From contig CAVCLB010000005.1 in assembly GCA_963602915.1 (NCBI GenBank), positions 2,775-66,774 of the forward strand: a stretch of DNA of 64,000 nt. The letters are read 5' to 3'. A model generated the notes under the pieces. It saw only the letters and a program-made list of their open reading frames with translations. It was not told the origin of the DNA and searched no databases. Positions 6,959 to 40,027 of the stretch are shown here, one piece after another (position 1 is the first letter of the stretch; each line of letters begins with the position of its first letter). The position numbers were made by a program, and so were the translations under genes. This DNA comes from Dysosmobacter segnis (GTDB taxonomy: Bacteria; Bacteroidota; Bacteroidia; Bacteroidales; Bacteroidaceae).

Positions 6959-9106
6959 CTACCATTCTATTTTCACGCGCACACCGTCGGGATTGTTTTC
7001 AAACTTCAGCAGCAGCGTGTTGAAGCCACCCTTTGTCCATTCCGACTCATATTTCGGTGCGCCTTCCACGCTTATTTTCTTGGGTTTGTGCGGCAACAGA
7101 ATGCGCATCACGTTGTCGGTGTTGGCCGGACTCTTTGCCGTGAACGAGAAACTCTTTGCGGTGCGCTTCTCGTCGTATTGCCTTGAAGCGGCGGCAAGCA
7201 CTTGGGGTTTCTGCTTGTCAGCCACGCGTGACACGTCGAAGAGCATGGCCTGCTCGCCGGGCAACACGATTTTGGCGGTCATTGTAGGCAAAGCGGGATT
7301 GAAAAGGTCGATGAGATGGCCTCTAACAGTGTACGGACTGTCGCCGGCGGGACTTTCGTCTACCACGGCGGCGAGGTCGTAGCAGCCGCGTTCAAGATAA
7401 AACGAGTTCTTTTCCTGCACGTCTCCCATGGCTTTCTTCACCGTGTTCACCAGCACTTCGTCGCCGCCCTTCACCATGGCATACTCCTTCGGGTCGTGAC
7501 GCAGCACCCACACAAGGCCATTGCCGCATGAATATTCACCTTCAAGAGCCTTGCGCGGCATGCCCATAAGTTCAAACAGATGTTCAGAAGGAGCATCGTA
7601 ACGACACGTATCGCTGTTCCACCATTCGCTCACACGCTGGAAAGCGTCGTCGTCGCGACCGCTATAAATGAGCGTTCCGCCGCCCTTCACCCAATCGGCA
7701 ATATGTTGGTGAGCCTCGGGCGAGAGCGGTTTCATGTTGCTGTAAGACATGAGCAACACCTTCACGTCCTTCCACGTGTCGGCATAGCCCACGTTTTCTA
7801 TGTGCGTTACATCCACGGGGATGCCACGTTTTAGCAGCGGCATGGCTTCGCCGAAGAAGTTGCTGAGTTGCGGGTCGTCGTAGCCTTCAACCGGCACGGG
7901 CGACCGTTGGAACATGAGTGAGTTGGCCATAAGCACGCTAGCACCGTGGGTTCCGCTCAAGCGGTTGGCCGAAAGCGGCATATCGCCGAGTGCGTTTATC
8001 ATCACCTGCATCTGCGTGGAGTAAGAGCGCGGTATGCGTGTCTTTTCATTGTTGCCTTCTCCCGTATCGTAAAGATGCTCGTAGATGCGGTCGGGCCAAG
8101 GCAACACCTCATAAGTGTTTATGCCGGGATAGAGCAATTGCGCCGTGAACGTGGCCTGATAGTTGCGCCGATAGTCGTCCCAGTCGCGTCCCCGGTCTTC
8201 TATAGGGTCGGTGAGAAAGAACATTTTGCGGCCAGTCGGAGCAGTCATCGACTGCATGCAGCCATATTCAAGAAACGCCGTTTCAAACACACGCTCTCGT
8301 GCCACGCTGTTGTAATAGTTGGGCACGCGCGACGTTCCCGTCCACACCTGCGCAATATATCCGTCGCAACTCTTCATAGAGGCAAGCGAAGCCTCGGGCG
8401 AAACGATTTGCCACATGGAGTAGTTCACCAGCGAATGCGTAGGCACATAGCACCGCACGTTCATGCCTTTGCTCTTACCGTAGTCTTTGGCATAGGTGAA
8501 TGCCTCGTCGAGCGCGCGGTAATACAGATGATATTTGAGTTTGTTGGAGAGATAAGTGTTCTCTGCCGACTCGTGTTGCGGTCTCCACGGAAAGCCGTAG
8601 TATTCTTTCCACTCGCGCTTGAAAGCCTCGCTATATCCGCCTTCAGCCCAAAATTCGGGTTCTTCGAGGAATATTGCGTCGATGCCCGCATCGATGACGG
8701 GTTTGATGTGACGCTCTTTGAAATAGTCAATATAGTGCATTGTGGGCACGATGTAGGGCATGTAGTGTCCGTGCCAAAGGGTGTCGCCCTGCATGGTTTT
8801 CTGTCCTTCGTCGAGATGCCACTTGCCGTCCCACTTGCCAGTGAAGTAGTCTTGGTATTCGCCCCATGCTATTCCGGTCATAAAGTGCGTGGTGTAGCCC
8901 TTCTTGCGCCATGAGTCAACGCGCTGGCGGAACGTCTCTTCCTTGCTGTCGTTGGCTCCGTAGCACATCACCACATCGGCCCTTATGTCAGTGACAGGCT
9001 TCCAGTGGCTAGAAGTCTGGAATATTGTTTTTTCTCGTGCGGTCTGCGCCGTGCCCGTGGCAAGTGCCATGGCGAGGACGGCGGCAGCCGATAGTCTTTG
9101 GTTCAT
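6959..9106 (-). CDS. secreted hypothetical protein, glycoside-hydrolase-like (TIM-barrel plus GH42-like 'trimerisation/GATase-like' middle domain); function unassigned
   Basis: The ORF is 715 aa with a signal peptide (MNQRLSAAAVLAMALATGTAQT). The segments IDAIFLEEPEFWAEGGY and DGYIAQVWTG resemble beta-strand-end acidic motifs of TIM-barrel hydrolases. KVLLMSYSNMKPL..WVKGGGTLIYSG resembles the middle domain of GH42 enzymes. I recognise no exact family. Confidence 0.8.
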   Translation of the reverse strand: MNQRLSAAAVLAMALATGTAQTAREKTIFQTSSHWKPVTDIRADVVMCYGANDSKEETFRQRVDSWRKKGYTTHFMTGIAWGEYQDYFTGKWDGKWHLDEGQKTMQGDTLWHGHYMPYIVPTMHYIDYFKERHIKPVIDAGIDAIFLEEPEFWAEGGYSEAFKREWKEYYGFPWRPQHESAENTYLSNKLKYHLYYRALDEAFTYAKDYGKSKGMNVRCYVPTHSLVNYSMWQIVSPEASLASMKSCDGYIAQVWTGTSRVPNYYNSVARERVFETAFLEYGCMQSMTAPTGRKMFFLTDPIEDRGRDWDDYRRNYQATFTAQLLYPGINTYEVLPWPDRIYEHLYDTGEGNNEKTRIPRSYSTQMQVMINALGDMPLSANRLSGTHGASVLMANSLMFQRSPVPVEGYDDPQLSNFFGEAMPLLKRGIPVDVTHIENVGYADTWKDVKVLLMSYSNMKPLSPEAHQHIADWVKGGGTLIYSGRDDDAFQRVSEWWNSDTCRYDAPSEHLFELMGMPRKALEGEYSCGNGLVWVLRHDPKEYAMVKGGDEVLVNTVKKAMGDVQEKNSFYLERGCYDLAAVVDESPAGDSPYTVRGHLIDLFNPALPTMTAKIVLPGEQAMLFDVSRVADKQKPQVLAAASRQYDEKRTAKSFSFTAKSPANTDNVMRILLPHKPKKISVEGAPKYESEWTKGGFNTLLLKFENNPDGVRVKIEW

Positions 9107-15961: not shown

Positions 15962-16150
15962 CGCATCCGGCTATTCATACATATTACGCCGGCGTTACAA
16001 TACGGTTACACTTTCAGCCTGAAACGGCACCGTGCGTGCCGAGTGCAAATCTACTAATTTTCTGCGTCACGGCCAAGTGCACGCGCGGCGATGTGCCGAT
16101 ACGGGCATTATTTTGACCGCACAGAAGCACGACAGAAAGAATTTAATTTG

Positions 16151-16158
16151 TAATTTTG
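16151..16158 (+). promoter_or_regulatory. -7 promoter box TAATTTTG upstream of the orphan hypothetical gene
   Basis: It is an exact match, 24 nt upstream of ATG 16182. Confidence 0.5.
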
Positions 16159-16181
16159 CAGCAAACAACAACGCAACCAAG

Positions 16182-16925
16182 ATGAATACAATAGGCCGCT
16201 ACAAACTGCTTGCTACGATGGTAAGGGCTTTTTTCGAGTCGTTCTCGTCGGCAATTGTCGACTGTCATGTGCCTGAACCGCACGGAAAATATAGTCCGCA
16301 GATGGTGAAAAAGCTCATGCTCGAACACTACGAACACATATCCGAGGCATTCCACGATGTCATTCTGACTCCGTTGGCAGTGATATCGCACAGCTACGAC
16401 GAGGTGATGGAGATAGTGCACAACACTAACATCGAGGGAATGACTATGTTTGAACTGGTGAGAGATGTGTGTGCCGACAGTCAACTGTATGATGCCATGG
16501 TGGCCGAATACCGCCGCAATTTCTCGTGTCTGCTTGCCGGACGGCACGAATCGGCAGCCAACTGGCAGCAAAGCTATACCCGCTGCGAAGGTGAAGAAGT
16601 TGAGATTGACATTGAAATAGGCATACGCCTTGTAGTGCGCATCACTATGGAAGCCTACGCCAAAGGGTTGCATCAGGCCGCAACGGGCAAGACCTCGATA
16701 CGCCAGGTGTCGCTTTTCCGTCTGCTGCTCGATGTCATGTCGGTTCTTCTGCACGATGAACCGGTGCAATTCGGGGCCGAAGAGCAAGACAATCTGGGGG
16801 CGATGTTTCTCAAAGTTTGCCGTTCGGAGGACAATTTCCACATAATGACCGAGGAGATGGACAACGCCTATACCGAACTTTTAAATCGCGAACAGCTCAC
16901 CGCGAGCGACGACACGGCCAACTGA
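16182..16925 (+). CDS. hypothetical cytoplasmic protein (247 aa), no recognisable domain
   Basis: The ORF has protein-like composition and its own promoter box. It has no signal peptide or TM segment. The start is trimmed to MNTIGRYKLL. The antisense ORF 16143-16841 is H/V-rich, which is typical of a shadow frame. Confidence 0.7.
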   Translation: MNTIGRYKLLATMVRAFFESFSSAIVDCHVPEPHGKYSPQMVKKLMLEHYEHISEAFHDVILTPLAVISHSYDEVMEIVHNTNIEGMTMFELVRDVCADSQLYDAMVAEYRRNFSCLLAGRHESAANWQQSYTRCEGEEVEIDIEIGIRLVVRITMEAYAKGLHQAATGKTSIRQVSLFRLLLDVMSVLLHDEPVQFGAEEQDNLGAMFLKVCRSEDNFHIMTEEMDNAYTELLNREQLTASDDTAN

Positions 16926-17011: not shown

Positions 17012-18415
17012 TCAATAGGCATTTTTGTCGCCTTTCACGGCATTGGCCACTGTCTTGTACATTATATATATGTCGAGCCAGATGCTCCAATGCTCCATAT
17101 ACCAGATGTCGCCGCGCACGCGTCCTTCCATTTGCGAAAGCTTTTTCGTTTCTCCCCGGAATCCAGTCACTTGGCTCCAACCCGTTATTCCAGGCTTCAT
17201 GAAATGGCGCACCATGTAATCGTCGATTATTTTTGCATACTCATCGGTCTGGCTCACCATGTGCGGTCGCGGACCGACAACGCTCATCTGCCCCAGAAGC
17301 ACGTTTATGAACTGCGGCATTTCGTCGATATTTGTCTTGCGCATGATGTCGCCCCAACGCGTTTTGCGGGGGTCGTCTTTGGTGGCTTGAAGCGTGTCGG
17401 CCTCGTTGTTTACCTTCATGCTGCGGAATTTAAGGCAGTAGAAATCCCTTCCGTTCAGTCCCGTTCGCTTCTGACGAAAGAATATCGGCCCGGGCATGGT
17501 GGCCTTGGTGATGATTGCAACGACCAAGAATATAAAGGGAAACAGCGTGCAGAGGAACGTGAGCGACACCGCAATGTCGAACAGACGCTTCACCACTCGG
17601 TTCTCTACACGCAGCAACGGTTCGTTGTAGAAGCTGAGATAGGGCACATCGCCAAGCATGTTGAACTTCATGCGGTGGTGCATGTAGTTGCTCACATTGG
17701 GCAGACTGTAGAAATGTATGAGGTGGCCGAAGCAGAAATGCACTATCGTCATGATTATATCGCGGTGGGTTGACGACAGACTGCAGTAGAGTTCGTGAAT
17801 ATCGCGGTGCTCTTCCAAATATGGAACAACGTCGTAGGGCGTGCCAAGATACTTGCATTCCTCTGGAAACGAAGGGTTGGGGGCAAAGTCGAAATAGCCT
17901 TGCACCTTATAGCCCAAGGTGGGTGTTTCGGTCATTTCCCAATAAAGTGCTGCGTTGTTTTCGGCACTTCCCACGAGAATGACCTTGTCGGAGTGGCTGT
18001 CTTTTGAACGGTAAATCTTGACAAGTTGGCGCAATGTGATGCGGAACAGGCTCAGACCGACAAACATCGCAATCCAGTAAAGGCACATGGGAATAATGTG
18101 CATGCGATAGAAATTGCCGAAAGAGAACAGCAGCGAGCACGCCACAGCATACATGAAAACGTTCTGCATTGTGCGCATCACAATCTGGTGGAACGTGACC
18201 TTGCGCTTGTAGAGCACCACACCACTGTGTATTGTGCATGCGAAATATATCACGGAGCTTGCCACCATTGTCTGCAACACGAAGTTGTAGACGGGTATAT
18301 GGTCGAAAAACCGGCTGAACATGACAAACAGCAGGTTGCTTATTATTATGTCGCCGACGATTACCAGTCCTGTAAAGAAGAAATTATTGTGTTGCGTATC
18401 GTAATTCCCGTTCAT
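17012..18415 (-). CDS. undecaprenyl-phosphate hexose-1-phosphate transferase (WbaP/WcaJ-type polyprenyl glycosylphosphotransferase)
   Basis: The ORF is 467 aa with N-terminal TM segments and a C-terminal 'bacterial sugar transferase' domain: KRLFDIAVSLTFL..PIFFRQKRTGLNGRDFYCLKFRSM..DPRKTRWGDIMRKTNIDEMPQFINVLLGQMSVVGPRP. Confidence 0.9.
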   Translation of the reverse strand: MNGNYDTQHNNFFFTGLVIVGDIIISNLLFVMFSRFFDHIPVYNFVLQTMVASSVIYFACTIHSGVVLYKRKVTFHQIVMRTMQNVFMYAVACSLLFSFGNFYRMHIIPMCLYWIAMFVGLSLFRITLRQLVKIYRSKDSHSDKVILVGSAENNAALYWEMTETPTLGYKVQGYFDFAPNPSFPEECKYLGTPYDVVPYLEEHRDIHELYCSLSSTHRDIIMTIVHFCFGHLIHFYSLPNVSNYMHHRMKFNMLGDVPYLSFYNEPLLRVENRVVKRLFDIAVSLTFLCTLFPFIFLVVAIITKATMPGPIFFRQKRTGLNGRDFYCLKFRSMKVNNEADTLQATKDDPRKTRWGDIMRKTNIDEMPQFINVLLGQMSVVGPRPHMVSQTDEYAKIIDDYMVRHFMKPGITGWSQVTGFRGETKKLSQMEGRVRGDIWYMEHWSIWLDIYIMYKTVANAVKGDKNAY

Positions 18416-18489: not shown

Positions 18490-18618
18490 AGTATTTTCCC
18501 ACACAAAAGAATGCGTTTCCGCATTAAAAACAGATGTCACTTTGCCCCAATAGTCAAATATATTGTCTTTTCAGTTACGCCTGTTCATGCCGGAGCAGCA
18601 TTCACTCCAGGCATGCGT

Positions 18619-19650
18619 CTATACGCCGCCGTCGGCAGCAGTAGCGGTGTCGTCTGTGGCAAGAAATGCCTTTATGTCGCGTTCGATGTTTTGGAATTGC
18701 GGTGAAAAGAGGTAGCCCACGTTTTTCTTAAGCGCAAGTTCCACGTCGGCAAGGCTCGACGAGTAGCACGACAGTTCGTTGCGCCGCTGCACGCCATGTA
18801 TGCTCTGCCGTGTGATTTCGCTCTCACGGTTGCGCACGAGAGTGCTGCAGATGCGCTTGAGCATGGGCATAACAACGCGGTCGAAAAGGTGATGCCCCTG
18901 TATATACATGTAGGTTGTGTCGGCAGTTACGCCCAACCGCTTTATGTCGTCCTTCACTTCACGATAGCTTTCCCTTGCATCGGGGTGCAGCCTTTGCATT
19001 GCCTGCACCTTTTTGGCCACCTTGTGACGCAGCTTTTCGAGCGACTCCTGCGGTTTGTCGGGATTGAAATGACCTATTTCTATTACTTTGAGAAAGTCGG
19101 TTATGGTGAATTCGCCGTATGAAGGCGACCGATACGACCAGATGCTCCACACGAAAAGCGGAAAAATGGCATTGGAGTAGTCGCGCAGATAAGCCTCGAA
19201 ATCAAACATGTCGCTGTCGTTGAGCGTCACGGCCACGCACACGTCGTGGAGCGACGGAGCATAGCACTGCATGTTTTCAATGGAGTAAGCATAGGTGTGG
19301 AACACATAGGGATTGTCTAAAATGGCCTTCGACGACGGGCTGCGGCGCTGCACTAGATAGTCGTAGTCGGCATCTACGCATGCAATCATGTCTCGCCCAG
19401 TCTTGTTTCCGGCTATGAGGCTCATCACGGCGGCCTTTTTTCCGCGTTCGAGATGCGGCACACGCGACGGAAGCATGACTTCGAAACGGCGCGTAGCATC
19501 CTCGAAGCGTCCCAAGACTGAACGCCAGAAGAACACGTCGTCGTAACTTTCAACATAGACAACAATCCTGCGCCGTGCCGACCGGGAGCTGAGCCGGTTG
19601 GCGGCTTCTATATAACGCGACGTGATATTGTCGCCAAGCCGTTTGCCCAT
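18619..19650 (-). CDS. DUF4435/TOPRIM-like (OLD-family nuclease-like, AriB-like) protein
   Basis: The protein is 343 aa from MGKRLGDN (ATG 19650). It has IVVYVESYDDVFFW (Glu34, Asp37/38) and ACVDADYDYL (Asp93/95/97), the Glu...DxD acidic pattern of TOPRIM/DUF4435. The start lies 5 nt after the stop of the upstream ATPase gene. The 49-aa N-terminal extension in the track would overlap the ATPase gene, so I reject it. Confidence 0.6.
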   Translation of the reverse strand: MGKRLGDNITSRYIEAANRLSSRSARRRIVVYVESYDDVFFWRSVLGRFEDATRRFEVMLPSRVPHLERGKKAAVMSLIAGNKTGRDMIACVDADYDYLVQRRSPSSKAILDNPYVFHTYAYSIENMQCYAPSLHDVCVAVTLNDSDMFDFEAYLRDYSNAIFPLFVWSIWSYRSPSYGEFTITDFLKVIEIGHFNPDKPQESLEKLRHKVAKKVQAMQRLHPDARESYREVKDDIKRLGVTADTTYMYIQGHHLFDRVVMPMLKRICSTLVRNRESEITRQSIHGVQRRNELSCYSSSLADVELALKKNVGYLFSPQFQNIERDIKAFLATDDTATAADGGV

Positions 19651-19655
19651 AGTGC

Positions 19656-20483
19656 TCAGTTTTGGTCGGTAATGTCGCTCACCTCGGTCACGCGGTCGGC
19701 CCATCCGTTCATTATCACCGCCGGACTGTGCGTGGTGAGTATTATCTGCACATTTGGGTTGAGCTCGAGAATGAGGTCGATGAGGCGTTCCTGCCACTCC
19801 ACATGCAGGCTCACTTCGGGCTCATCCATGAACAGAACGTAGTTGCGGTTGTCTTCAACGAGCACCGTAAGCAGTATGGCCAGCATCTGTTTCTCACCGC
19901 TTGACAGCTGGTAGGGGGTGAGCATTTCGCCAATCTGCGCGAAACGTATCTCGTTTTCGGTGCGCACTATCTTCTTGCCGGTATCGCAGAACAGGTCGTC
20001 GATGATGTTCTGGAAACGCAGTTTCGGCTCGGCTATTTTCTGTGCGAGCGCGGCTGCGTCGGGCGCACCGCTTTGCAGGGCCGAGATTATGCGGTTGCCA
20101 ATGTTCACCTGATAGTCGAGATACTTGCGTTGGAGCGTGAACAGCTGGCAGTCGAGCTCGGTGGCAAGGTCGGAAAGCGTTGCGCTGAATTTGTTGAACG
20201 TGTCGATATTCACCAAAGGGCGGTCAACCGAGCGTATCACGTCGAACCTTATCCACTTGGCATCGGAGGGCGACACGTCGAGACGCACGCCCTTGAGCAT
20301 ATGGCTCGGAAACTCGCCTCCGGCCGAAAGTCCCCTTATCACCTTGTTGAGAATGGTGCTCTTGCCCACCCCGTTTATGCCACTCAGGATGTTCACCTTG
20401 CGGTCGAGGTTCCACACGATGTGCTTCTTTCCGCTCCACAGCGAGTCGATTTCTATCTGTTGTATGTAGTCGGCGTATTTCAT
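19656..20483 (-). CDS. compact ABC/SMC-type (AAA_21/AAA_15-like) ATPase, AriA-like, with no membrane partner
   Basis: The ORF is 275 aa. It has Walker A SGINGVGKST (34-43), ABC signature LSSGEKQ (193-199), Walker B VLFMDEPE (216-223) and an H-loop TTHSP (250-254). Confidence 0.8.
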   Translation of the reverse strand: MKYADYIQQIEIDSLWSGKKHIVWNLDRKVNILSGINGVGKSTILNKVIRGLSAGGEFPSHMLKGVRLDVSPSDAKWIRFDVIRSVDRPLVNIDTFNKFSATLSDLATELDCQLFTLQRKYLDYQVNIGNRIISALQSGAPDAAALAQKIAEPKLRFQNIIDDLFCDTGKKIVRTENEIRFAQIGEMLTPYQLSSGEKQMLAILLTVLVEDNRNYVLFMDEPEVSLHVEWQERLIDLILELNPNVQIILTTHSPAVIMNGWADRVTEVSDITDQN

Positions 20484-20530
20484 AGTCTTGTCGGTTTTCG
20501 GGCAGCGGCACCATGCCGCCCCTTCATGTG

Positions 20531-20538
20531 CAAATATA
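20531..20538 (-). promoter_or_regulatory. -7 promoter box TATATTTG upstream of the ATPase/DUF4435 operon
   Basis: The plus strand reads caaatata, about 47 nt upstream of ATG 20483. Confidence 0.45.
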
Positions 20539-20618: not shown

Positions 20619-21536
20619 ATGAGTAAAAACCGACCTTTACTGGCACACCTTAGCATGCTTACGGCATGTGTGTGCTGGGGTCTCATGTCGCCCGTTGGCA
20701 AAGATGCCATGCTTCACGGCGTTGACAACATCGACATGGTAACGTTCCGGGTTATGGCCGGAGCCATACTGTTTTGGATTACATCGCTGTTCATGCCCCG
20801 CGAGCATGTACCGCTGAAGGATGTTGCGGCATTTGCCGGTGCTGGTTTGCTCGGATTGGTGTTCAACCAGTGCTGCTTCACCATAGGCTTGAGCATCACA
20901 TCGCCCGTAAACGCAAGCATCGTAACCACATCGTTGCCCATATTCGCCATGATTCTTTCAGCTTTGATTCTTAAAGAACCCGTCACGGGCAAGAAGGCTT
21001 TGGGCGTGGGTTTGGGCTGCGGCGGCGCGCTAATACTTATTCTCGGCAGCGCGGCGGCGCACGACACGCGGGTGGGCGACATTCGCGGCGACCTGCTGTG
21101 CATTGGTGCCCAGCTGTCGTTTGCCCTCTATCTCTCGCTCTACCGCAACTATCTGCGGCGCTACAACGCCGTGACGGTGAGCAAATGGATGTTTCTTTGG
21201 TCGGCCATAATGGTATTCCCGTTCAGCGCGAAGCATGTGTTCTCCACGCAATGGGCCGCAATAACGGCACAAACATGGGCTGAGACGGCTTTCGTGGTGA
21301 TATTCGGCACGTTCATTGCCTATCTGCTCATGATGAATGCACAGAAGACATTGCGCCCCACGGTGGTGAGCATATACAACTACATGCAGCCCGTTGTGGC
21401 AGTAGCGGTGAGCCTTATTGCCGGAATGAGCGTGTTTACATGGAAACAGGGTGTGGCCGTGGCACTCGTGTTTGGCGGAGTTTGGCTTGTGATAAAGTCG
21501 AAATCGCGCCGCGACATCGAAACGGCAAGCAACTGA
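20619..21536 (+). CDS. DMT superfamily (EamA-like) transporter
   Basis: The ORF is 305 aa with about 10 TM segments in two EamA-like halves. Confidence 0.85.
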   Translation: MSKNRPLLAHLSMLTACVCWGLMSPVGKDAMLHGVDNIDMVTFRVMAGAILFWITSLFMPREHVPLKDVAAFAGAGLLGLVFNQCCFTIGLSITSPVNASIVTTSLPIFAMILSALILKEPVTGKKALGVGLGCGGALILILGSAAAHDTRVGDIRGDLLCIGAQLSFALYLSLYRNYLRRYNAVTVSKWMFLWSAIMVFPFSAKHVFSTQWAAITAQTWAETAFVVIFGTFIAYLLMMNAQKTLRPTVVSIYNYMQPVVAVAVSLIAGMSVFTWKQGVAVALVFGGVWLVIKSKSRRDIETASN

Positions 21537-21681: not shown

Positions 21682-22551
21682 ATGGACTTGTATAAATATG
21701 ATAATCTGAAATTCCTGCCTTCAAAGCAAATGCCGCTGCACCGGCAGGACACTTGGGAAATAACCTACATAATCATGGGAAGGGGCACACGCACGATGGG
21801 CGACACCGAACAGCACTTCACCGAAGGCGACCTCGTGCTCATTCCGCCGCACATACCTCACCAGTGGAAGTTCGACCCCGACCGCACCGACAGCACGGGG
21901 CACGCGTCAACTCTTACGCTCACGTTCAATACCGAACTGATTGAACGATGGGCCGGGGCATTCCCCGAATACAACGAAAGGCTCGAAAACTTCAAGGCCA
22001 TAAGTCGGGTTATGTCGTTCGGCAAGGACGACGCGGCGGTTATAACCGACCTTATGAAGAAAATGCACGACAAAGACCAGCGCGAACTGCTGCCTTATGT
22101 CATGCGCCTGATACTTATCATGGAGAAAAGCATGAGCTCGGCCTACTCTGTGGGCAACGCCCCTGAAACCGACCGCACCGCCGAACGGCTCAACACTGTG
22201 CGCGCTTTCACCGCGAGCAACTACTCGCGCACGATTACGATAGACATGATTGCCGAGCATGTGGGCATGAACCGATCGTCGTTCTGCACGTTCTTTAGGA
22301 AGGCAACCGGGCAAACCTACATCACTTATCTCAACAAATTCCGCATTGAGAAAGCCTGCACGCTGCTGCGCAAAAAGACAAAAGACGTGAACGAGGTGTG
22401 CTACATGGTGGGCTTCAACGACGTGCCCTACTTCTGCCGGTGCTTCAGAAACAACCGGGGAATGTCGCCGCGCGAATATGCCGAAGGCATCATCACCAAG
22501 CGGCAGATACTCAAAAGCCGCGATGCGACAGAAGAAATGCACGAATGGTAA
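21682..22551 (+). CDS. AraC family transcriptional regulator (cupin-like N-domain plus HTH_18)
   Basis: It has GDLVLIPPHIPHQW (cupin) and a C-terminal region AEHVGMNRSSFCTFFRKATGQTYITYLNKFRIEKAC..VGFNDVPYFCRCFRNNRGMSPREY. Confidence 0.92.
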   Translation: MDLYKYDNLKFLPSKQMPLHRQDTWEITYIIMGRGTRTMGDTEQHFTEGDLVLIPPHIPHQWKFDPDRTDSTGHASTLTLTFNTELIERWAGAFPEYNERLENFKAISRVMSFGKDDAAVITDLMKKMHDKDQRELLPYVMRLILIMEKSMSSAYSVGNAPETDRTAERLNTVRAFTASNYSRTITIDMIAEHVGMNRSSFCTFFRKATGQTYITYLNKFRIEKACTLLRKKTKDVNEVCYMVGFNDVPYFCRCFRNNRGMSPREYAEGIITKRQILKSRDATEEMHEW

Positions 22552-25655: not shown

Positions 25656-28600
25656 TTATCGTGTGAGCGAGAATTTCAGGCTCAACCCGAAGTCTTGCGT
25701 GGTTGTGGGATAGCTGCTGCTCGACAGAAGCGGAGTGTTGGTCTGACGGTCGTAATAGAAGCTCATCGTGAGCAAACGCGAGAGCGTATAGTCGGCCGAG
25801 AACGAGAGCTTGAATGCCGTGTTGCCACTGTTGGCCGAGCTGGTCATCGTGGCTATGTCGCGGCTGATTGAAGCCTGCTTGCGCAGACTGAGGTCGAGAC
25901 GCAGCTTCAAATCGGTGTTCACTCCACCACGGCGTGTGTTCTTTTGCGACGACTGGGTGTTCTTCTGCGACTGCTGACTGTCATTGCCCGAACCCTTCTT
26001 CTTGGTCTTCACAGCACGGTGGTTGCGCCCTCCGAACAGGTTGAAGTTGCTTATCGTGTAGCCAGCACCCAACACCCAGTCGTGGCTCGACGACTCGTTA
26101 ATCTGCACACTCGTCATGCTCAGATTGAGCACACGCGTTGATCGGTATTCAAGTTTCACCGTCATGTTGTTCTGCAAAGTAACGTCAACACCCAAAAGCG
26201 GCGAGAACGACTCGTTGAGACTAACCGTCGAGACATTGTACATGGAGTTGGGTATTGGGTTGCCCGACGTTGCATCGTTGATGAATCCAAGCCCGTTCAT
26301 ATATTCCATAAACGTGCTGTAAGAGCTGTAAGACCCTACTGCATATATGCTCTTGTAGGAATGGTTGATGTTTACGCTCTTGAATACGTCGCGGAACCAC
26401 GGCAGTTGCGACAAACCGCTGTAACGCACCGACCAGTTGGGCAGCAGATGTGCGAGCGAGGGGAACAGTGACAGCGAGCCCGACCCCATGCTTGTGTAGG
26501 CCGCAAGGAACGCGGGCACCATCACATCGCTGCTGTATTTGTTCACACCGCCGTTCTTGGCGTCGAACGTCTTGCCTGCAAACGTGGTGCCTTCGGGATA
26601 TACCGAACCGGCATACTGTGCCTCAACGCGCTCGCGATAGCTGTCGAGCGACTTGCAGAAATGCTCGAATGTGGGCGAATGGAAGCCGTTTGACGCGTTG
26701 CCCGCCCCCTCAAACGCGCTTCCGAGCGATAGTGTTGTCATCGTGAACGTACCACTCTGCGTGGTGGGATTGCCCTGATACATATACTGCACACTGCGTG
26801 CCGTGGTTTGGGTGCGGCTCGCGTTGAGGTCGATTTTCAGGTTGCGCACCGGCTCAAGCGTAGCGCGCAGCTGCAGGTCTTCGGTCTTGTTGGTGGTGGC
26901 AGGAGTAGCCACCGAGTCGCTCATGAGCAGCCATCCGTTGTCACGCGCCTTTTCTATGTAAGAGTCGCCAATCATGCCGAAGGCGAAATCAAGCCCTGGT
27001 GTGAGCACACCCGCGCCGCGCGACTGTCCGAAAGCCTTGCCTATCGTGGGCATAAATCCCGGCAACGACATTGAATACTGGTTGCGATAGCTGAAGTTCA
27101 AGTTGCGCACCATCATCAGGACACGCGCCGCCGACTGTGCCGCACGATACCATCCATTCTCCTCCACGGGCTCTTTTGCCGTCACGGTGATTTTAAGTTT
27201 GAGCGCAGAGTCCACCTTATTCAATATGCGTATGTTGTTGTCGTCAAGGCGGCGGTATTTCAGATTGAATTTCTTCCCGTCTTCGGTCTTTGCGGCAACG
27301 ATTATGCGTTTCGACCGTTTACCGTGGTTTATCTTCACAACGGTGTCGGGCATGAGCGTTATCTCCTTCTCAAAACTCTTCTTGTTCTTTGGCAGTTCCT
27401 TGCCAAGCTGCGCCTGCGACTTTCCGGCTGCGCCTTTCTTGTCGTCCTTTGTCGCCTGGTTTTTCTTCTGTTGTGCACTTGGCCTTGTGTTGCGCAGCTT
27501 TGGAGTGGACGACGATTTCTTGAATTTTTCGTTCACTTTCTTCAAGAACGGCACATGATTGTATAGTTTCTCCATGTTGAACGTGCCGTTGATGTTGAGC
27601 TGGCGGTTGTTGGATATAGTGTTGCCAAGCGAAGTACCGTCCTCAAGGTCGGTGCCGCGCAGCCAGTTGTAGGTGGCGTTGTAGCTGGCATCGGCCGTTA
27701 TCCAGTCGAACACGGGTATGAGGTTGAGCGGCAATTTGTATGACAGTGAGAACGTCTGGTTATAGTCAAGCGGTTCGCCGAAGTGCTTAATGCTTGTCCA
27801 CACAGAGTCTTTCCATGCCGTATAATTGTCGGGATAGAGGTCTTTGTTTACCGGAGTGTAGGGCTGTTCAATCTCGGCATGCGTGGCACTTTGGAAGTTC
27901 ATGTGCAGATTCTTGGTCAAGTCCCACCTGAGCGTGAACTCCCTGTTCCACAGGAACTGCGAGCTGAACGTGAGCGGAAGGTTGGTGTCTTCCATGCTTT
28001 CCATGTCGCGCTCCTGCAGTTCGTAGTAGTTGCGCGTTATGTCGGTATTGAACCCGATGTTCTGCGGCAGCCAGTTCAGACCAAAACGCTTCAATATGTC
28101 AAACCACTTGCTGCGTGACTTTATCTTCCGGAACGGTTCGAACGCCTTGTAGACGGGTGTCCACGAGTAGTTGAGCGAGCCTCTCCAGTTGTCTTCCTTT
28201 TCATAGACGGTGGTCTCACCGGTTGTATAGCTGTGGCTATGACTGTAAGAGAACGAGAAGTTGGCTGGGTCGTAAGGCATCGGGTGACGCTTGTTCTGTA
28301 TGCCGACACGCACGTTTGACAACGAGAAGTTGGTTTGTGTCACCTTCGTCACGGCTATGCTTTCTATTGAGTCGCGCTCATGTTTGCTTCCTGCGGCATC
28401 AAGAGCGTCGCTCAACTCCATGTCGGTGTCAAGCGGATTATACTTGGGCGAAGTCTTTTCCTTTGTTATCGAGTAGTAAAGCGGTGCGCTCACCTTGGCC
28501 TTGTCGGGGAAGAATTTACCCAGTTCTACGTTTGCCGTGAGACTGTAGTTCTGATAGTCGTCGGTGGAACGCTGCGACACGCCTTCCTCCAGACCGCCGA

Positions 28601-31600
28601 ATCCCGACGAGGTGTAGCGTCCCTGCATATTGATAGATCCCAAGTCGGAGAGCTGCATATTGAGGTTTCCCTGTGCAGCCCAGCCTCCCGAGTTATTGTA
28701 TTCCTTCAAGCGCAGCTCGTTTACCCACACTTCACCGCTCTTTACATCGCCCGAATTGTTGCGCACACCTATCACCATTGTCTTCACCTCGCCCAATGTC
28801 GGGTTGCCCATCACGGTGATTTTGTTCTGCGGTTTGTCGGAGTCGTAGGCAGAATAGGCACGGTTGTATGACGCAAGCCCCTCGGCCTTGGCCTTGTTGC
28901 GGGCCTTCTTGAGAGCCGTGAATACGGTAAGCGGCACATCGAGCATGTTGTCGGTGGGCCACACAGCTTCGCAGTCAGAGCGCGAATATTTATTGTAGTC
29001 GCTCTTGTTAGGGGTTATCTTCAGCGGTATTTCATACTCGTAGTAATTGCTCTTGTAGTCGCTTCCGAGACGGATGAACACCGCGAGCTGGTCGTCTTGC
29101 AGGTTGGTGGCGTTGGGTTCGAGTACATTTGCATGCACAAACATCTGCATACGCTTGTACTGGCGCAAATCCACCGTAGTGTTTTTGTAGACAGCTTTCG
29201 ACTCGCCCGTGCCGAGATTGGTGAGCGTCATGGCCAAAGCCTGCTCGTTGTTCTCCACGAGTTGCGGCTGGGTGGGGTCTTGTCCGCGCTGTATTCCGGG
29301 CGGAAGCACATAGTTGACGGGGGTCTTGTCGTTGTTTTCCTCGATGCTCACGGCACTCACCGAAATCTTTCCCGACTGCGAAGCCGAGTTGTCGAGGTTC
29401 TGTTCATACACCCGCCACTCGCCGCGCACGAGGTCGAGCGTGGCAAAACGCAACACTATGGGGTGGCTGAATCCCGTGAGGAACATGCGCATGAAGCGTA
29501 TGCTCGTGAAATCGCTTATAGAGCCCACCTTGCGTTCATACTCGTCGAGCGGTATGCGGAACTGATACCACGTGGCCTCCTCGGTCTTGTTGTTGCGCAG
29601 TTTGGGGCGTGTCACGCGTTTGTCAACGATGTAGTTGCGCCCCACTTCAAGGTCTTCGGGGCGTATGGATATGCGATACTGGAAATATTTCTCATACTCG
29701 TTGAGCGTGTAGTCCTGGTTGATGTCCTCCACATCGGGCGTGCTCTTGTATGAAGTGTCGTAGCCCTCGGTGCGCGAGTCGTTGTCGGGCGAGTTGCCCT
29801 GAGGGTTGTTTATGTATTTGTAGCGGCGCAGAATCGAGGCCTGCTCGCGGTCGTAGTCGGTTCCGCGGAAGTAATGATAGTCGTCGGCGGCAGGGTCGGC
29901 CCAGATGGAATCCCACACAGCCGGGCTCACTTTGCCCTGCACTGCCGTGAGAAAGTCTTGGTAAGACTCGAATTTCTGTTCCTCTTCGTCGTTCAAACCA
30001 TTCAGTCCCACATCCTGAAGCGCGCGCGAACCCTTCGACGTAGCAAATGCGTAAGTCACCGTGGCTTGGTTTGGAATCTTTCCCCACTGCGTGGTTGTGA
30101 AGCTCGACGAACCGTCTACCGGCATGCCGCTTTCATAGAATTTCTTTCCGTCGCGCAGCACATCCTCGCTCAGTTCGCCCAAGTTTATGTAGAAATCGCC
30201 TCCGTAATCGTTGGCAACGCCCTGCTCGCGAGTGTAGATGAACGGGTCGAGCATCCAGAATTCTATGTATTCCACGTTGGCCGTCTCGAAATCGTTGGTG
30301 TCGAGTTTGCGCATCATTCCTCCCCAGTGCTGCTGCGGGTTGTTTAGAGTTCCGTCGTAATTGAGGTCGGGATTGAAGTTGTAGGGGCCGCGTTCGTTGG
30401 GATAATAGGCCAGGTTGAGCACGCTCAATGTGGATGTCGCGCCGTTGTAGCTGCTCTGGTTGCGGTTGGGGAACAGCTGGTTTACATATATTTCGCGCAC
30501 ATAGTGGTTGGAGAGTTGGTCGAGGTCGCTCTTGATGTGTGTCGGTGTGAGCGACGACGACCGCCGGGTGAACAGCGGGTCGATGGTGTACCAGGCCAAG
30601 CGCGAGCGGTTGAATCCGCTTTGCAGCGTGGTTTTGTCGCTCGACTCGGAGAACATCGACGGCACGCTCGACAGCACCCACGACGTTGGTGTGCTCACGT
30701 CAATGGTGTTCTTGGTGTTCTCGAAGTCGTCGAGATAAGAGGCATTATCCTGAGTTCCGTGGCTTTGTCCGGCTATGAGCTGCGCGAATTCGCCCGAGAA
30801 CGAGATGCTCGAAGGTTGCGTAAGGTGCAGGAACGGCAGCTTGTCGAGCATATTGGTGAGCCATTGGCTCTCCTTTTTCCAGTTTACGTTGAGTCCCCAC
30901 AGTGTGTTGTTGAGCGGTTCCGACCCCATTGTCACCTTTGTGGTGAGAGCCTGTTCGGATAGATGCTGTATTGTTCCGCTGAGCTGGAAATTCTTCGAGA
31001 AGTCGTATTCCCAGTTCATTCCGAACATTGTCTTGCGCTCCTGCGCATAGTCGGTGTTGCTCTCGAGCGACACATTCACGCTTGTTCCGGCATCGATGAT
31101 GCTTTGGTTGAGTATGGTAACCTCGCCCCCGCTGTAGTCAACCGAGTAGTCGGAACCTTCGGTGAGGGTGACGCCTCCGGCCGTAACCACCACCGAACCC
31201 TGCGGAATGTTATATGCCCCGAGCGAGATAACGTTGGCCGATGTGCCTCGGAACTGGCCCATAAGCACATATTTATCCTTCTCGGCTATTTGCTTCGCCA
31301 CGGTTTTCGTGGAGTCGTAAAGCTCGGTGAAGGCATATTTCTCGGCCACGTCGGCGGCCACGCCATGGCCAGTGAGATAGTCGCGCATGTATTTTCCGAA
31401 CGGTTCGGCAACCGGGAAGAACACGCGTCCGTTGCTCACCGTGTAGCCTTCAACATAGTCGAAATAGCCGTTGGAGTGCGCCTTATTGTTGTTGTCGAGC
31501 CTGTCGGCACCCAGAAGTTTTATTATTGTCTGGTCTTTCACCTGCGCCTCGGGGATGTAGGTGAGGTAGACACCGGCCGTATCGCTTTGGAATTTCACGT

Positions 31601-37552: not shown

Positions 37553-40027
37553 ATGACTTATACTATAGAAAAGGTAACGACGCTCATCGGGGCGCACCGT
37601 TACGGCACAGCCGATGCCAACATCGGGTTTCTGCTCACCGACAGCCGCTCTTTGTGCTTCGCCGAAGAAACCCTGTTCTTTGCCCTGAAATCGGGGCGCA
37701 ACGACGGTCACCGCTATATATTCGACCTCTACCGGCGCGGAGTGCGCAACTTTGTAGTGGAGGATGTCCCGGCCGACTACGGCACAGCATACGCCGACGC
37801 CAACTTCCTGAAAGTGGCCGACACGCTTGTAGCACTGCAAAGACTGGCCGAACGCCACCGCGACGAGTTTGACATTCCCATCGTTGGAATAACCGGCAGC
37901 AACGGCAAGACAATAGTGAAGGAATGGCTCTACCAGCTACTCTCGCCCGAAATGACAGTCACACGTTCGCCGCGAAGCTACAACTCGCAGATAGGCGTGC
38001 CGCTGTCGGTGTGGCTTCTCAACGAGCAAAGCGAGGTGGGAGTGTTCGAAGCTGGCATTTCAGAGCCCGGAGAGATGCTCGCACTGCGCGACATCATACA
38101 GCCAACAACCGCAGTCCTGACGTTCGTGGGCGATGCTCACCAGAAAAATTTCAGTTCGCTCGAAGAGAAATGCCGCGAAAAAGTGATACTGTTTCACGAT
38201 GCCAAGACCATTGTCTACTGCAAAGACGACGACGTGGTGGAGCAAGTGGTGGCGTCATCCGACTATCGCGGCGAGAAGCTCTGCTGGTCGATGAAAGACA
38301 ACACAGTGCCGTTCTTCGTGGAAAGCGTGGAAAAAGACGGGCTCTGCTCAACCATACATTATATATACAACGGCGTGAAAGGATCATACAAAATACCTTT
38401 CATCGACGACGCATCGGTGCGCAACTCAGCCACAACAGCCGTGGTGGCATTGCATCTTGGCCTTAAGCGCGATATGCTCGCAAACCGCATGCACTCTCTC
38501 GAGCAGGTGGCTATGCGCCTAGAAGTGAAAGAAGGACAGCACGGATGCACTCTCATCAACGACTCCTACAACTCCGACATCAACTCACTCGACATCGCCC
38601 TCGACTTCATGAACCGCCGGCCCGACCACAAGGGACGCAAACGCACGCTCATTCTGAGCGACATCTACCAGACGGGCGAACCTCTCGAAACACTCTACAA
38701 CGAGGTGTCAAACCTCGCATTGCAGCGCGGCGTGCAGAAAATAATAGGCATCGGGCCGCAGATTATGGCACATGCCGACCTCATACGACTGCCTGAAAAG
38801 TTCTTCTTCCACGACGTCACGTCGTTCATACACAGTGAAGTGTTCAAGTCACTGCGCGATGAAGTGATTCTCATCAAGGGGGCGCGACGCTTCGGTTTCG
38901 ACAACATCACCGAACTGCTGGTGCAGAAAGTGCACGAGACAATACTCGAGGTGAACCTCTCCAACGTAGTGAAAAACCTCAACCACTACCGCTCTTTCAT
39001 GCGCCCGGAAACCAAACTCGTGTGCATGATAAAGGCCGACGCCTACGGGGCAGGCAGCGTGGAGATTGCCAAGACACTGCAAGACCACCGCGTTGACTAC
39101 CTCGCCGTGGCCGTAGCCGACGAGGGCGTGACGCTGAGAAAGAACGGAATAACGTCGAACATTATGATTATGAACCCCGAAATGACGGCGTTCAAGACCA
39201 TGTTCGACTACGAACTGGAACCGGAAATCTACTCGTTCAGACTTCTTGATGCTCTCGTGCGCGAGGCACAGAAGGAAGGCATCAACAATTTCCCTGTGCA
39301 CATAAAGCTCGACACAGGCATGCACCGGCTTGGCTTCGACCCCGAACACGACATCGACGAACTCATATCGCGCCTGCAACAACAGTCGGCAATAATCCCG
39401 CGCTCGGTGTTCTCGCATTTCGTGGGAAGCGATTCCGACAGTTTCGACGGCTTCTCCGAACATCAGTTCAAGCTCTTCGACAAAGCAAGCAGCAAGTTGT
39501 GCGCCGCATTTCCCCACAAGATTCTGCGCCACATCGACAATTCTGCAGGCATAGAACACTTCCCCGAAAGGCAGCTCGACATGTGCCGTCTCGGACTTGG
39601 ACTTTATGGTTACGACCCGCGCGACAACTCGATGATAAACAACGTGAGCACACTGATGACCACAATACTGCAAATGCGCGAAGTGAAAGCAGGCGAAACC
39701 GTGGGCTACAGCCGCAATGGCACGATAGAACACGACTCGGTTATCGCCGCAATACCTATCGGATATGCCGACGGACTCAACCGACATCTCGGCAACAGAC
39801 ATTGCTATTGTCTGGTGAACGGCAAGAAAGCCTACTATGTGGGCAACATCTGCATGGATGTGGCAATGATTGATGTCACCGGAATTGACTGCAAAGAGGG
39901 CGACAGGGTTGAGATTTTCGGTGAGCAACTGCCGGTTACTGTGTTGTCGGACACGCTCAACACCATACCCTACGAGGTGCTCACCGGTATCAGCAACCGC
40001 GTGAAACGCATCTACTACCAAGACTGA
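37553..40027 (+). CDS. bifunctional MurF-like UDP-MurNAc-tripeptide--D-Ala-D-Ala ligase / alanine racemase fusion
   Basis: The ORF is 824 aa. The N-terminal half has a Mur ligase P-loop (IVGITGSNGKTIVKEWL). The C-terminal half has the PLP-lysine box VCMIKADAYGAG and the racemase tail PYEVLTGISNRVKRIY. Confidence 0.9.
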   Translation: MTYTIEKVTTLIGAHRYGTADANIGFLLTDSRSLCFAEETLFFALKSGRNDGHRYIFDLYRRGVRNFVVEDVPADYGTAYADANFLKVADTLVALQRLAERHRDEFDIPIVGITGSNGKTIVKEWLYQLLSPEMTVTRSPRSYNSQIGVPLSVWLLNEQSEVGVFEAGISEPGEMLALRDIIQPTTAVLTFVGDAHQKNFSSLEEKCREKVILFHDAKTIVYCKDDDVVEQVVASSDYRGEKLCWSMKDNTVPFFVESVEKDGLCSTIHYIYNGVKGSYKIPFIDDASVRNSATTAVVALHLGLKRDMLANRMHSLEQVAMRLEVKEGQHGCTLINDSYNSDINSLDIALDFMNRRPDHKGRKRTLILSDIYQTGEPLETLYNEVSNLALQRGVQKIIGIGPQIMAHADLIRLPEKFFFHDVTSFIHSEVFKSLRDEVILIKGARRFGFDNITELLVQKVHETILEVNLSNVVKNLNHYRSFMRPETKLVCMIKADAYGAGSVEIAKTLQDHRVDYLAVAVADEGVTLRKNGITSNIMIMNPEMTAFKTMFDYELEPEIYSFRLLDALVREAQKEGINNFPVHIKLDTGMHRLGFDPEHDIDELISRLQQQSAIIPRSVFSHFVGSDSDSFDGFSEHQFKLFDKASSKLCAAFPHKILRHIDNSAGIEHFPERQLDMCRLGLGLYGYDPRDNSMINNVSTLMTTILQMREVKAGETVGYSRNGTIEHDSVIAAIPIGYADGLNRHLGNRHCYCLVNGKKAYYVGNICMDVAMIDVTGIDCKEGDRVEIFGEQLPVTVLSDTLNTIPYEVLTGISNRVKRIYYQD

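Follow-up and report, generated by a model that had tools for sequence, protein, structure and literature searches.

A probable PARIS-family ATPase-nuclease pair of compact format at a syntenic chromosomal locus of Bacteroidales

To our knowledge, PARIS has been characterised only in the form that carries a 464-amino-acid (aa) AriA and comes from an Escherichia coli satellite. In that system (E. coli B185, P4 satellite; PDB 8UX9 and 8V45-8V49), an operon encodes an ABC ATPase, AriA, and a DUF4435/TOPRIM nuclease, AriB. The coiled-coil four-helix bundle of AriA has two tasks: it builds the 6:3 complex by providing the hexamer with its coiled-coil interface, and its positively charged pocket recognises Ocr, a phage protein. 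AriB docks on the AriA head-head interface (bioRxiv 10.1101/2024.01.02.573835); in the solved complex, AriA D401 and E404 form salt bridges with AriB R28 and R31 (PMC11464382). Here we describe a two-gene locus in a 64,000-nucleotide stretch of DNA, hereafter the window (GenBank assembly GCA_963602915.1, contig CAVCLB010000005.1, positions 2,775 to 66,774), that is very probably a PARIS-family module (OLD-family class 4) made of an ABC ATPase and a DUF4435/TOPRIM nuclease. The family is known and already called by annotation tools; the new interest of this pair lies in its minimal AriA architecture and its stable vertical inheritance.

The pair and its likeness to PARIS

The two genes are as follows.

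19656..20483, minus strand: ariA-like gene for a compact ABC/SMC-type ATPase of 275 aa (Pfam, PADLOC, PDB and Foldseek matches)
18619..19650, minus strand: ariB-like gene for a DUF4435/TOPRIM nuclease of 343 aa (Pfam, PADLOC, AlphaFold2 model and PDB fold matches)

The ATPase frame runs from an ATG at 20483 to a TGA at 19658-19656 and the nuclease frame from an ATG at 19650 to a stop at 18621-18619, so that the spacer between the two co-oriented genes is 5 nucleotides (nt; 19655-19651), as an earlier note on this DNA had read it. The open reading frame (ORF) listing also offers an alternative GTG-started frame for the nuclease (18619-19797); since all 41 of 41 homologues begin with M-x-[KR]-R-L, in which M1 and L5 are invariant, the ATG at 19650 is the real start.

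Under the published MacSyFinder rule, PARIS is called for adjacent genes that score at least 32 bits with AAA_15 or at least 27 bits with AAA_21, together with at least 27 bits with DUF4435 (Rousset et al. 2022, PMC9122126). The two genes considered here are adjacent on one strand, and the ATPase scores 77.1 bits with AAA_21 (3.3e-21) and 59.6 bits with AAA_15 (5.3e-16), while the nuclease scores 172.6 bits with DUF4435 (E=1.6e-50) over residues 27-272. The pair furthermore matches the curated AriA and AriB profiles of PADLOC-DB: the ATPase aligns with the AriA profile PDLC04164 at 4.9e-56, its residues 2-273 lying on model positions 2-252 of 253, and the nuclease matches the AriB profiles PDLC02983 (1.5e-58) and PDLC04165 (1.1e-34). 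Chance cannot account for Pfam and PADLOC matches of this strength. NCBIfam holds a specific model for neither protein. The top solved-structure relatives of both proteins are AriA and AriB. With the published rule, the PADLOC models, these PDB relatives and catalytic residues that are invariant among 81-83 orthologues all in agreement, the PARIS-like family call of the earlier note is well supported, including its proposal of a DUF4435/TOPRIM partner.

The ATPase carries the following features.

20355..20381, minus strand: Walker A GINGVGKST (residues 35-43, with K41); mean identity 0.94 over 83 orthologues
19815..19907, minus strand: ABC signature LSSGEKQ (residues 193-199) to Walker B VLFMDEPE (216-223); identity 1.00 over 83 orthologues
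19986..20159, minus strand: predicted helical hairpin (helices 109-137 and 143-166); AlphaFold2 model, with a predicted local distance difference test (pLDDT) score of 83-93 here
19788..19808, minus strand: LHVEWQE (residues 226-232, with E229 and E232); phmmer alignment with AriA LHIDWQE of 8ux9_B

Completed by the H-loop TTHSP (250-254), this is the same set of motifs as in AriA, and K41, S194-Q199, D220/E221 and H252 are invariant or near-invariant in the homologue sets of 37 and 83 sequences. Its best PDB sequence match is the 464-aa AriA of 8ux9/8v45 (1.2e-12), in an alignment limited to its Walker A region and C-terminal lobe. The AlphaFold2 model (pLDDT 72; predicted template-modelling score, pTM, 0.76) consists of an ABC head and a single helical hairpin, the hairpin being its most confident part, and a Foldseek search with this model places AriA (8v47_H) on top at 5e-11 and PtuA of Septu/retron systems next, with query TM-scores (TMq) to the AriA chains of 0.52-0.62.

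The ATPase has 275 aa against 464 in E. coli AriA, as small for an AriA-type protein as the earlier note had suspected, and only 153 residues separate Walker A from the signature (that note had put the distance at about 150), against roughly 328 in AriA. The IS1/IS2 four-helix bundle of AriA is not present in the AlphaFold2 model of the ATPase, where only a two-helix hairpin stands between the lobes; as modelled, this hairpin is the sole remnant of the coiled-coil/insertion region of AriA. The bundle is a trait of the E. coli B185 system and does not enter the detection rule of the family. Without the Ocr pocket and the coiled-coil interface, this pair must differ from the E. coli system in its stoichiometry and in how it senses a trigger, and neither a 6:3 propeller nor hexamer formation nor Ocr-type sensing can be assumed for it. 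Conservation within the hairpin is uneven, at 0.85 in helix 1 vs 0.59 in helix 2 (0.59-0.68 for the tip and helix 2), and the most variable parts of the whole protein are the hairpin tip, helix 2 and the loop ahead of the hairpin. If the ATPase still has a sensor surface, the variable tip and helix 2 are where it would most plausibly lie.

For the AriA surface that touches the nuclease, the alignment gives a candidate counterpart. The segment after Walker B, LH[IV][DE]WQE, which contacts AriB in E. coli, is kept here, with W230 and Q231 invariant among ATPase homologues and position 229 occupied by E in our protein and by D in the majority consensus of 37 sequences. In the phmmer alignment, DEPEVSLHVEWQER of the ATPase stands opposite AriA DEPEISLHIDWQED, the segment that bears D401 and E404.

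In the nuclease, we located the following features.

19537..19551, minus strand: TOPRIM Glu motif E34-S-Y-D-D38, with W42-R43 opening the helix that comes after it; 100% conservation among 81 orthologues
19360..19374, minus strand: TOPRIM DxD motif D93-A-D95-Y-D97; 100% conserved
19276..19278, minus strand: E125 (in YSIEN), candidate equivalent of AriB E122 by motif spacing; 100% conserved

The motifs read VYVESYDD (E34, D37, D38) and CVDADYD (D93, D95, D97), and all ATPase and nuclease motifs quoted in the earlier note are present at the residue numbers that it implied. E34, D38, D93, D95 and E125 are conserved at 100% across the 81 nuclease orthologues, and this acidic constellation has nearly the spacing of AriB (4, 55, 2 and 30 residues here vs 4, 58, 2 and 32 for AriB E26/D30/D88/E90/E122), an equivalence drawn from motif spacing and the Pfam profile rather than from residue-level structural superposition. 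The helix after the catalytic E34, which carries the invariant W42-R43, would correspond to the AriB helix with R28 and R31.

Among folds in the PDB, AriB alone is a credible match to the AlphaFold2 model of the nuclease (pLDDT 83, pTM 0.82), through the chains 8ux9_A (E 4.5e-3, prob 1.00, TMq 0.38) and 8v46_D. Since neither sequence nor profile searches of the PDB reach AriB, the nuclease is very divergent from its E. coli relative; weak matches in these searches to phospholipase A2 and an odorant-binding protein were set aside as chance. The protein exceeds the modelled AriB chain (306 residues) by about 35 aa, and its variable, low-confidence tail is confined to the last 10-15 residues or so. 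The roughly 240 residues that the earlier note left unassigned, and took for an extra C-terminal region of the effector, are DUF4435/AriB proper: they fall within the DUF4435 profile (27-272) and a helical C-terminal part, which solved AriB has as well.

Distribution in Bacteroidales and beyond

Homologues number in the thousands and lie mostly in Prevotella, the ATPase being about 80-85% identical over many clusters. Exact 8-mer seeds from the ATPase alone retrieved at least 205 relatives, counted as Prevotellaceae, among GTDB species representatives, and the best 80 of these 205 belong to Prevotella/Segatella, Leyella, Hallella and Hoylesella. Counting the window and the collected loci, 81 pairs were called in which an ATPase gene precedes a DUF4435 gene on the same strand, mostly at a distance of 2-50 nt. 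The anchor of the neighbourhood is the gene on the other side of the ATPase.

20619..21536, plus strand: EamA/DMT transporter, divergently transcribed (Pfam EamA 4.2e-42); a syntenic anchor for which no functional link is implied

The order of a DMT gene, a divergent ATPase gene and a DUF4435 gene is found in Prevotella/Segatella, Leyella, Hallella, Hoylesella, Bacteroides finegoldii and Phocaeicola massiliensis; in the last two, identities to the genes of the window are 50-51% for the DMT transporter, 58-62% for the ATPase and 44-48% for the DUF4435 protein. The B. finegoldii pair has the accessions WP_007751218.1 and WP_022275889.1. EamA/DMT adjoins the pair in 33 of 82 loci, mostly from GTDB species genomes, and when metagenome loci are anchored on EamA instead, the pair is adjacent in 43 of the 70 informative ones. 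The 24 'empty' EamA loci are EamA genes in other neighbourhoods rather than vacant sites, and genome-wide absence of the pair cannot be read from them. In the Segatella copri/P. merdae lineage, the pair stands beside AraC, CCA-adding-enzyme and PurL genes, with EamA elsewhere. We dropped a functional link to the CCA-adding-enzyme gene, tempting as it would be for a nuclease that acts on tRNA; the adjacency of that gene is confined to one lineage (L002-L007, sampled six times) plus L019, L021, L022, L028 and L032 out of 87 loci.

Two of the Bacteroidales records that carry this synteny are labelled plasmids. NZ_OY725943.1 ('plasmid 41', B. finegoldii; L173) encodes alpha-2-macroglobulin, MeaB, a TonB-dependent receptor and MscS and is typed non-mobilizable; OY726067.1 ('plasmid: 93', Phocaeicola massiliensis; L174) is also typed non-mobilizable, its stretch carrying no annotation. 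Both look like chromosomal contigs under plasmid labels. We rejected such hits as evidence of mobility and, because of the chromosomal-type genes of the B. finegoldii record, the non-mobilizable typing and the shared synteny with the DMT gene, count the two records as vertical conservation. Five loci titled Flexilinea, Lachnospiraceae, Eggerthellaceae, Oscillospiraceae and Bulleidia (L015, L016, L036, L042 and L069) hold the pair at 78-82% ATPase identity, the last three with a Prevotella-type EamA neighbour as well; these are probably mislabelled or contaminated 'cleanbin' metagenome-assembled genomes and not cases of cross-phylum transfer.

One locus departs from the rest at the same EamA-adjacent site. 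In L126 (metagenome contig OBLI01001245.1:1936-3852), where EamA is 63% identical, as in other genera, the ATPase has 229 aa, is 45% identical and lacks most of the hairpin with its catalytic motifs intact, and the DUF4435 protein is intact at 344 aa and 50% identical. This pair has either evolved fast or taken the place of an earlier module at the site.

Some 1.1 kb downstream of the EamA orthologue, three of seven collinear loci carry a SIR2 and HerA pair (L096:7022-10034, and also L098 and L102, on S. copri-type contigs; PADLOC HerA 2.4e-177, SIR2 4.2e-58), while L097, L100, L101 and L104 hold other genes there. This site appears to be a defence hotspot that varies between strains, unlike the PARIS-like pair, which is fixed.

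Beyond Bacteroidales copies at this site, the compact format is widespread. An exhaustive search of representatives yields 293 clusters (50% identity) of the compact ATPase family at E<=1e-30, mostly of 280-350 aa, so that 275 aa lies at the short end, and many members have an extra insertion of about 60 aa. When searched with a profile of distant members, Rikenellaceae, Spirosoma, Methylococcales, Thiotrichales and Patescibacteria all yield compact AriA-like ATPases. A Methylovulum pair lies in a prophage-like region, where genes for a sheath protein and an S24 repressor are among the phage-like neighbours, and a 4.4 kb ColE1-type plasmid of Klebsiella carries a 325-aa ATPase with a 325-aa DUF4435 protein; PDLC04164 is the best AriA model for both ATPases. 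PADLOC-DB v2 (2023) indeed holds a short AriA model and its cognate AriB, PDLC04164 (253 positions) and PDLC04165 (289 positions), which match both of our proteins and fit best the pairs of B. finegoldii, L126 (with its 229-aa ATPase), Methylovulum and the Klebsiella ColE1 plasmid. Because the ATPase matches PDLC04164 end to end, the 'miniature' format had already been catalogued, and the earlier note's suggestion of a distinct subtype was overstated. With 293 clusters, a PADLOC model of its own and copies on a plasmid and in prophage-like DNA, the format is common, catalogued and at times mobile. In its scattered distribution and its presence in prophage-like DNA and on a plasmid, the wider compact clade behaves as defence systems do. 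Whereas those other members lie on a plasmid or in prophage-like DNA, and E. coli PARIS in a satellite/prophage hotspot, the copy described here occupies a fixed, syntenic chromosomal locus; the Bacteroidales copy appears to be a branch of the compact clade that became fixed in its lineage.

A literature search found no publication that characterises the compact PARIS clade, and none on PARIS with Prevotella; B. fragilis NCTC 9343 has been reported with a PARIS called by DefenseFinder (PMC13139388).

Two further relatives differ in their surroundings. In Rikenella (L090:8001-8855 and L091:907-1761), an intact compact AriA-like ATPase of 284 aa stands with no DUF4435 gene nearby, a convergent MacB/FtsX permease gene downstream and 1.4 kb upstream without a called gene (ORFs of at most 142 aa); this orphan is kept over many Rikenellaceae clusters at 73-99% identity. 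In Spirosoma litoris (L089:5382-10036), a divergent gene of purL type (FGAR amidotransferase) directly adjoins the pair. In the S. copri/P. merdae lineage (L002:10001-17313), PurL lies two genes downstream of the pair, and in the window it is 13 kb away; the closeness of the pair to purL in two unrelated lineages is probably a coincidence.

Present role of the pair

By analogy with PARIS of E. coli B185, the ATPase would form ATP-sandwiched head-to-head dimers that hold the nuclease as an inactive monomer via the N-terminal helix of its TOPRIM domain. A signal that alters the head-head interface would then release the nuclease, which might dimerise and cut RNA, most likely specific tRNAs, so that translation stops. 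The parts that such a mechanism needs are conserved in the pair. The best explanation, which we favour with moderate confidence, is a compact PARIS-family module that is lineage-fixed, toxin-antitoxin-like and immune, with an E. coli-like caging of the nuclease; for the present role as such, we lean towards anti-phage defence, if by a little.

Several observations weigh against this. As to mechanism, the hexamer coiled-coil interface and the trigger-binding part of AriA are missing from the ATPase, which makes the E. coli mechanism not simply transferable; the ATPase model is of moderate confidence (pLDDT 72), the fold match of the nuclease to AriB is globally weak (TM 0.38), and searches of the PDB with the nuclease (phmmer) or with a 41-sequence profile do not reach AriB. 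Our literature search found no experiment on any compact PARIS. As to phages, no close relative of the ATPase was found in a scan of IMG/VR, none of the DUF4435 protein in a tblastn search of 50,697 phage records, and none in a Foldseek search of the viral structures of BFVD; a PHROGs scan for DUF4435 also returned nothing. A scan seeded with distant family members gave one viral contig (L092), with a short ATPase of 36% identity and no ORF of at least 150 aa in the roughly 2.4 kb downstream.

As to inheritance, it is atypical of defence genes to keep the same DMT neighbour all the way from Prevotella to Bacteroides, and the pairwise distances of both ATPase and DUF4435 protein track those of EamA (Mantel r=0.85, p=0.001). 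Against L008, the closest relative and our reference for ratios of nonsynonymous to synonymous substitution rates (dN/dS), these ratios are 0.033 (ATPase) and 0.098 (nuclease), values that the housekeeping neighbours bracket (0.011-0.25; EamA 0.05, response regulator 0.011, histidine kinase 0.076, WbaP 0.082, fucosidase 0.035, AraC 0.25), and dS of the pair equals that of its flanks, at 0.28-0.44 for all genes. Both genes are under strong purifying selection. The window belongs to the core chromosome and encodes PurL, iPGM, the proteins of a two-component system, a WbaP-like transferase, AraC, fucosidase, PNGase F, SprA, Dxs and TrkAH; within it, no integrase, no tRNA gene and no protein-family match to a mobile-element function was found, nor did scans of the window find other defence genes near the pair. 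In its behaviour the pair resembles a chromosomal locus of Prevotellaceae/Bacteroidaceae that is old, has been passed on vertically and is not on a mobile element. The usual genomic marks of defence genes, patchiness and residence in a prophage, satellite or defence island, which are characteristic rather than defining, are not seen in this clade and are seen in distant members. While the family call of the earlier note stands, its reading of the pair as an immunity or abortive-infection module is therefore weakened by the conserved gene order, co-divergence, low dN/dS, flank-equal dS and core context. That note had itself named a universally conserved, single-copy core locus among housekeeping neighbours as an argument against immunity; a conserved locus with such neighbours is largely what we find.

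The observations on inheritance speak for the strongest alternative, an exapted PARIS that now works for its host in Bacteroidales (for example in regulated RNA processing or RNA turnover, or as a brake on translation under stress), in which the ATPase would gate a TOPRIM RNase and defence against phages would have ceased to be the main role; we regard it as a serious reading that is nevertheless unlikely. The three-gene order is kept from Prevotella to Bacteroides and Phocaeicola with identities dropping in step, and the ATPase evolves more slowly than the adjoining transporter (mean pairwise distances 0.19 for the ATPase vs 0.34 for EamA, with 0.38 for the DUF4435 protein). The dN/dS values lie among those of the neighbours and dS matches, the surrounding chromosome is devoid of integrase, tRNA and nearby defence genes, and the SIR2-HerA pair, present in three of seven collinear loci, illustrates by contrast how ordinary accessory defence genes behave. 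Precedents exist: Cran1 is an essential OLD-family ATPase-nuclease of cell-cycle progression, apparently without an antiviral role (PMC12796447), and RNase M5, which acts in rRNA maturation, is the closest catalytic-site homologue of AriB (PMC12409363). Cran1 resembles our pair as a lineage-conserved member of the broad ATPase-TOPRIM superfamily and differs from it in being a fused single polypeptide, archaeal and a DNA nickase. On this reading, the pair would have been captured before the Prevotella-Bacteroides split and then kept at one chromosomal site as an ATP-gated RNase of the host, for tRNA or rRNA processing or for slowing translation under stress, a course of events that we hold to be possible but doubtful. 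However, the pair is adjacent in just 43 of 70 EamA-anchored loci, the rest being rearranged contexts, and a toxin-antitoxin-like architecture alone can explain long retention, by addiction. Close relatives in the family are found in prophage-like DNA and on a plasmid, and the variable hairpin tip and helix 2, together with the divergent L126 pair (45% and 50% identical) at the same site, look like sensor diversification or replacement.

An improbable alternative is a selfish chromosomal toxin-antitoxin module, in which loss of the ATPase frees the nuclease and the host at present gains nothing in defence or physiology. Gene order and tight coupling are invariant in the 81 pairs, as addiction would have it, and the intact orphan ATPase of Rikenella without DUF4435 fits a toxin that can be lost and an antitoxin that cannot go first. 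Addiction predicts, however, neither a toxin dN/dS of 0.10 nor 100% catalytic conservation over family-level divergence, as a useless toxin should decay, and the locus shows no association here with a mobile element.

That the pair is not PARIS at all, the ATPase being the nucleotide-binding subunit of an ABC transporter or part of a Septu, Gabija or retron effector, is very improbable: although there is a weak ABC_tran match (2e-5; 25.6 bits, at the cut-off, residues 189-222 only), NCBIfam transporter models match at 1e-5 to 1e-10 with scores well under the cut-off in every case, homologues go by 'ABC-type ... ATPase component' in some sources, and PtuA models and structures also match the C-terminal half of the ATPase (PtuA being the next-best fold match after AriA), AriA is the sole end-to-end profile match; PtuA, GajA and class 1 OLD share with this pair the AAA_15/AAA_21-type ABC head and the principle of an ATPase controlling a nuclease; the transporter reading fails on scores that are not above cut-offs and on a neighbour, encoded on the other strand, that is a secondary transporter of the DMT/EamA type, with no adjacent ABC permease; Septu and retron PtuAB fail since the partner is DUF4435/AriB and not an HNH PtuB, no HNH or reverse transcriptase domain is found and PtuA profiles cover only the C-terminal 90 residues or so; and Gabija and class 1 OLD fail since ATPase and TOPRIM, fused in GajA and OLD, are here two ORFs with a stop and a 5-nt spacer between them, with neither a UvrD-type GajB nor any other helicase neighbour.

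On the reading of a compact PARIS module, the clade would be of use in its own right: because the bundle is absent, and in one variant almost the whole hairpin, it offers a natural minimal system for the caging and release of the nuclease and for sensing. The locus is kept at one site in the dominant gut genera Prevotella/Segatella, Bacteroides and Phocaeicola, and would be either a rare long-lived 'core' immune module or a domesticated one; were the host RNase reading true, it would be a bacterial counterpart of archaeal Cran1, an 'immune' ATPase-nuclease with a housekeeping role. In practice, annotation pipelines will call the pair PARIS in very many gut Bacteroidales genomes, and the 'defence systems' counted in these taxa take in a locus whose behaviour is not that of an accessory defence gene.

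Leader and neighbouring genes

Outside the two coding regions and EamA, three further features are of note.

20531..20538, minus strand: TATATTTG box, candidate Bacteroidota -7 promoter element (read from sequence; octamer enrichment)
17012..18415, minus strand: WbaP-like Bac_transf gene, neighbour of the pair
21682..22551, plus strand: AraC-family regulator, beyond EamA

The TATATTTG box that the earlier note had pointed out ahead of the pair is present, 47 nt upstream of the ATPase ATG. Its octamer occurs 6 times in the window vs 1.0 expected from shuffles, a count reached by no shuffle, and fits TAnnTTTG, the Bacteroidota -7 element; the box is a candidate promoter element of a two-gene operon. 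A scan for sigma-70 promoters and terminators is uninformative here, the sigma-70 consensus not being applicable to Bacteroidota promoters. A second TATATTTG box lies at 18555-18562 (minus strand), 57 nt past the DUF4435 stop and 140 nt before the ATG of the WbaP-like gene, and is followed by a small hairpin with a T-run at 18510-18525 (minus strand). Box and hairpin are probably the promoter and leader of the WbaP-like gene itself, or else a terminator of the pair.

The neighbours are those that had been described, a DMT transporter gene (20619-21536, plus strand) on one side and the WbaP gene (17012-18415, minus strand) on the other. The AraC regulator is the fastest-evolving neighbour, with 83% aa identity and a dN/dS of 0.25 vs L008 where other genes are 93-99% identical; it recurs as a neighbour of the pair and is directly adjacent in the S. 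copri/P. merdae lineage. A 297-aa ORF at 16032-16925 (plus strand), between the response regulator and the WbaP-like gene, has no Pfam match and probably starts at the internal methionine of MNTIGRYKLL, and a 715-aa ORF at 6959-9106 (minus strand) is likewise without a Pfam match. Further away, a 2566-aa ORF at 25656-33356 (minus strand) has a SprA_N domain (E 1.6e-260), SprA being the type IX secretion translocon of Bacteroidota, and 37553-40027 encodes an 824-aa Mur-ligase/alanine-racemase fusion; both genes fit a core Bacteroidota chromosome.

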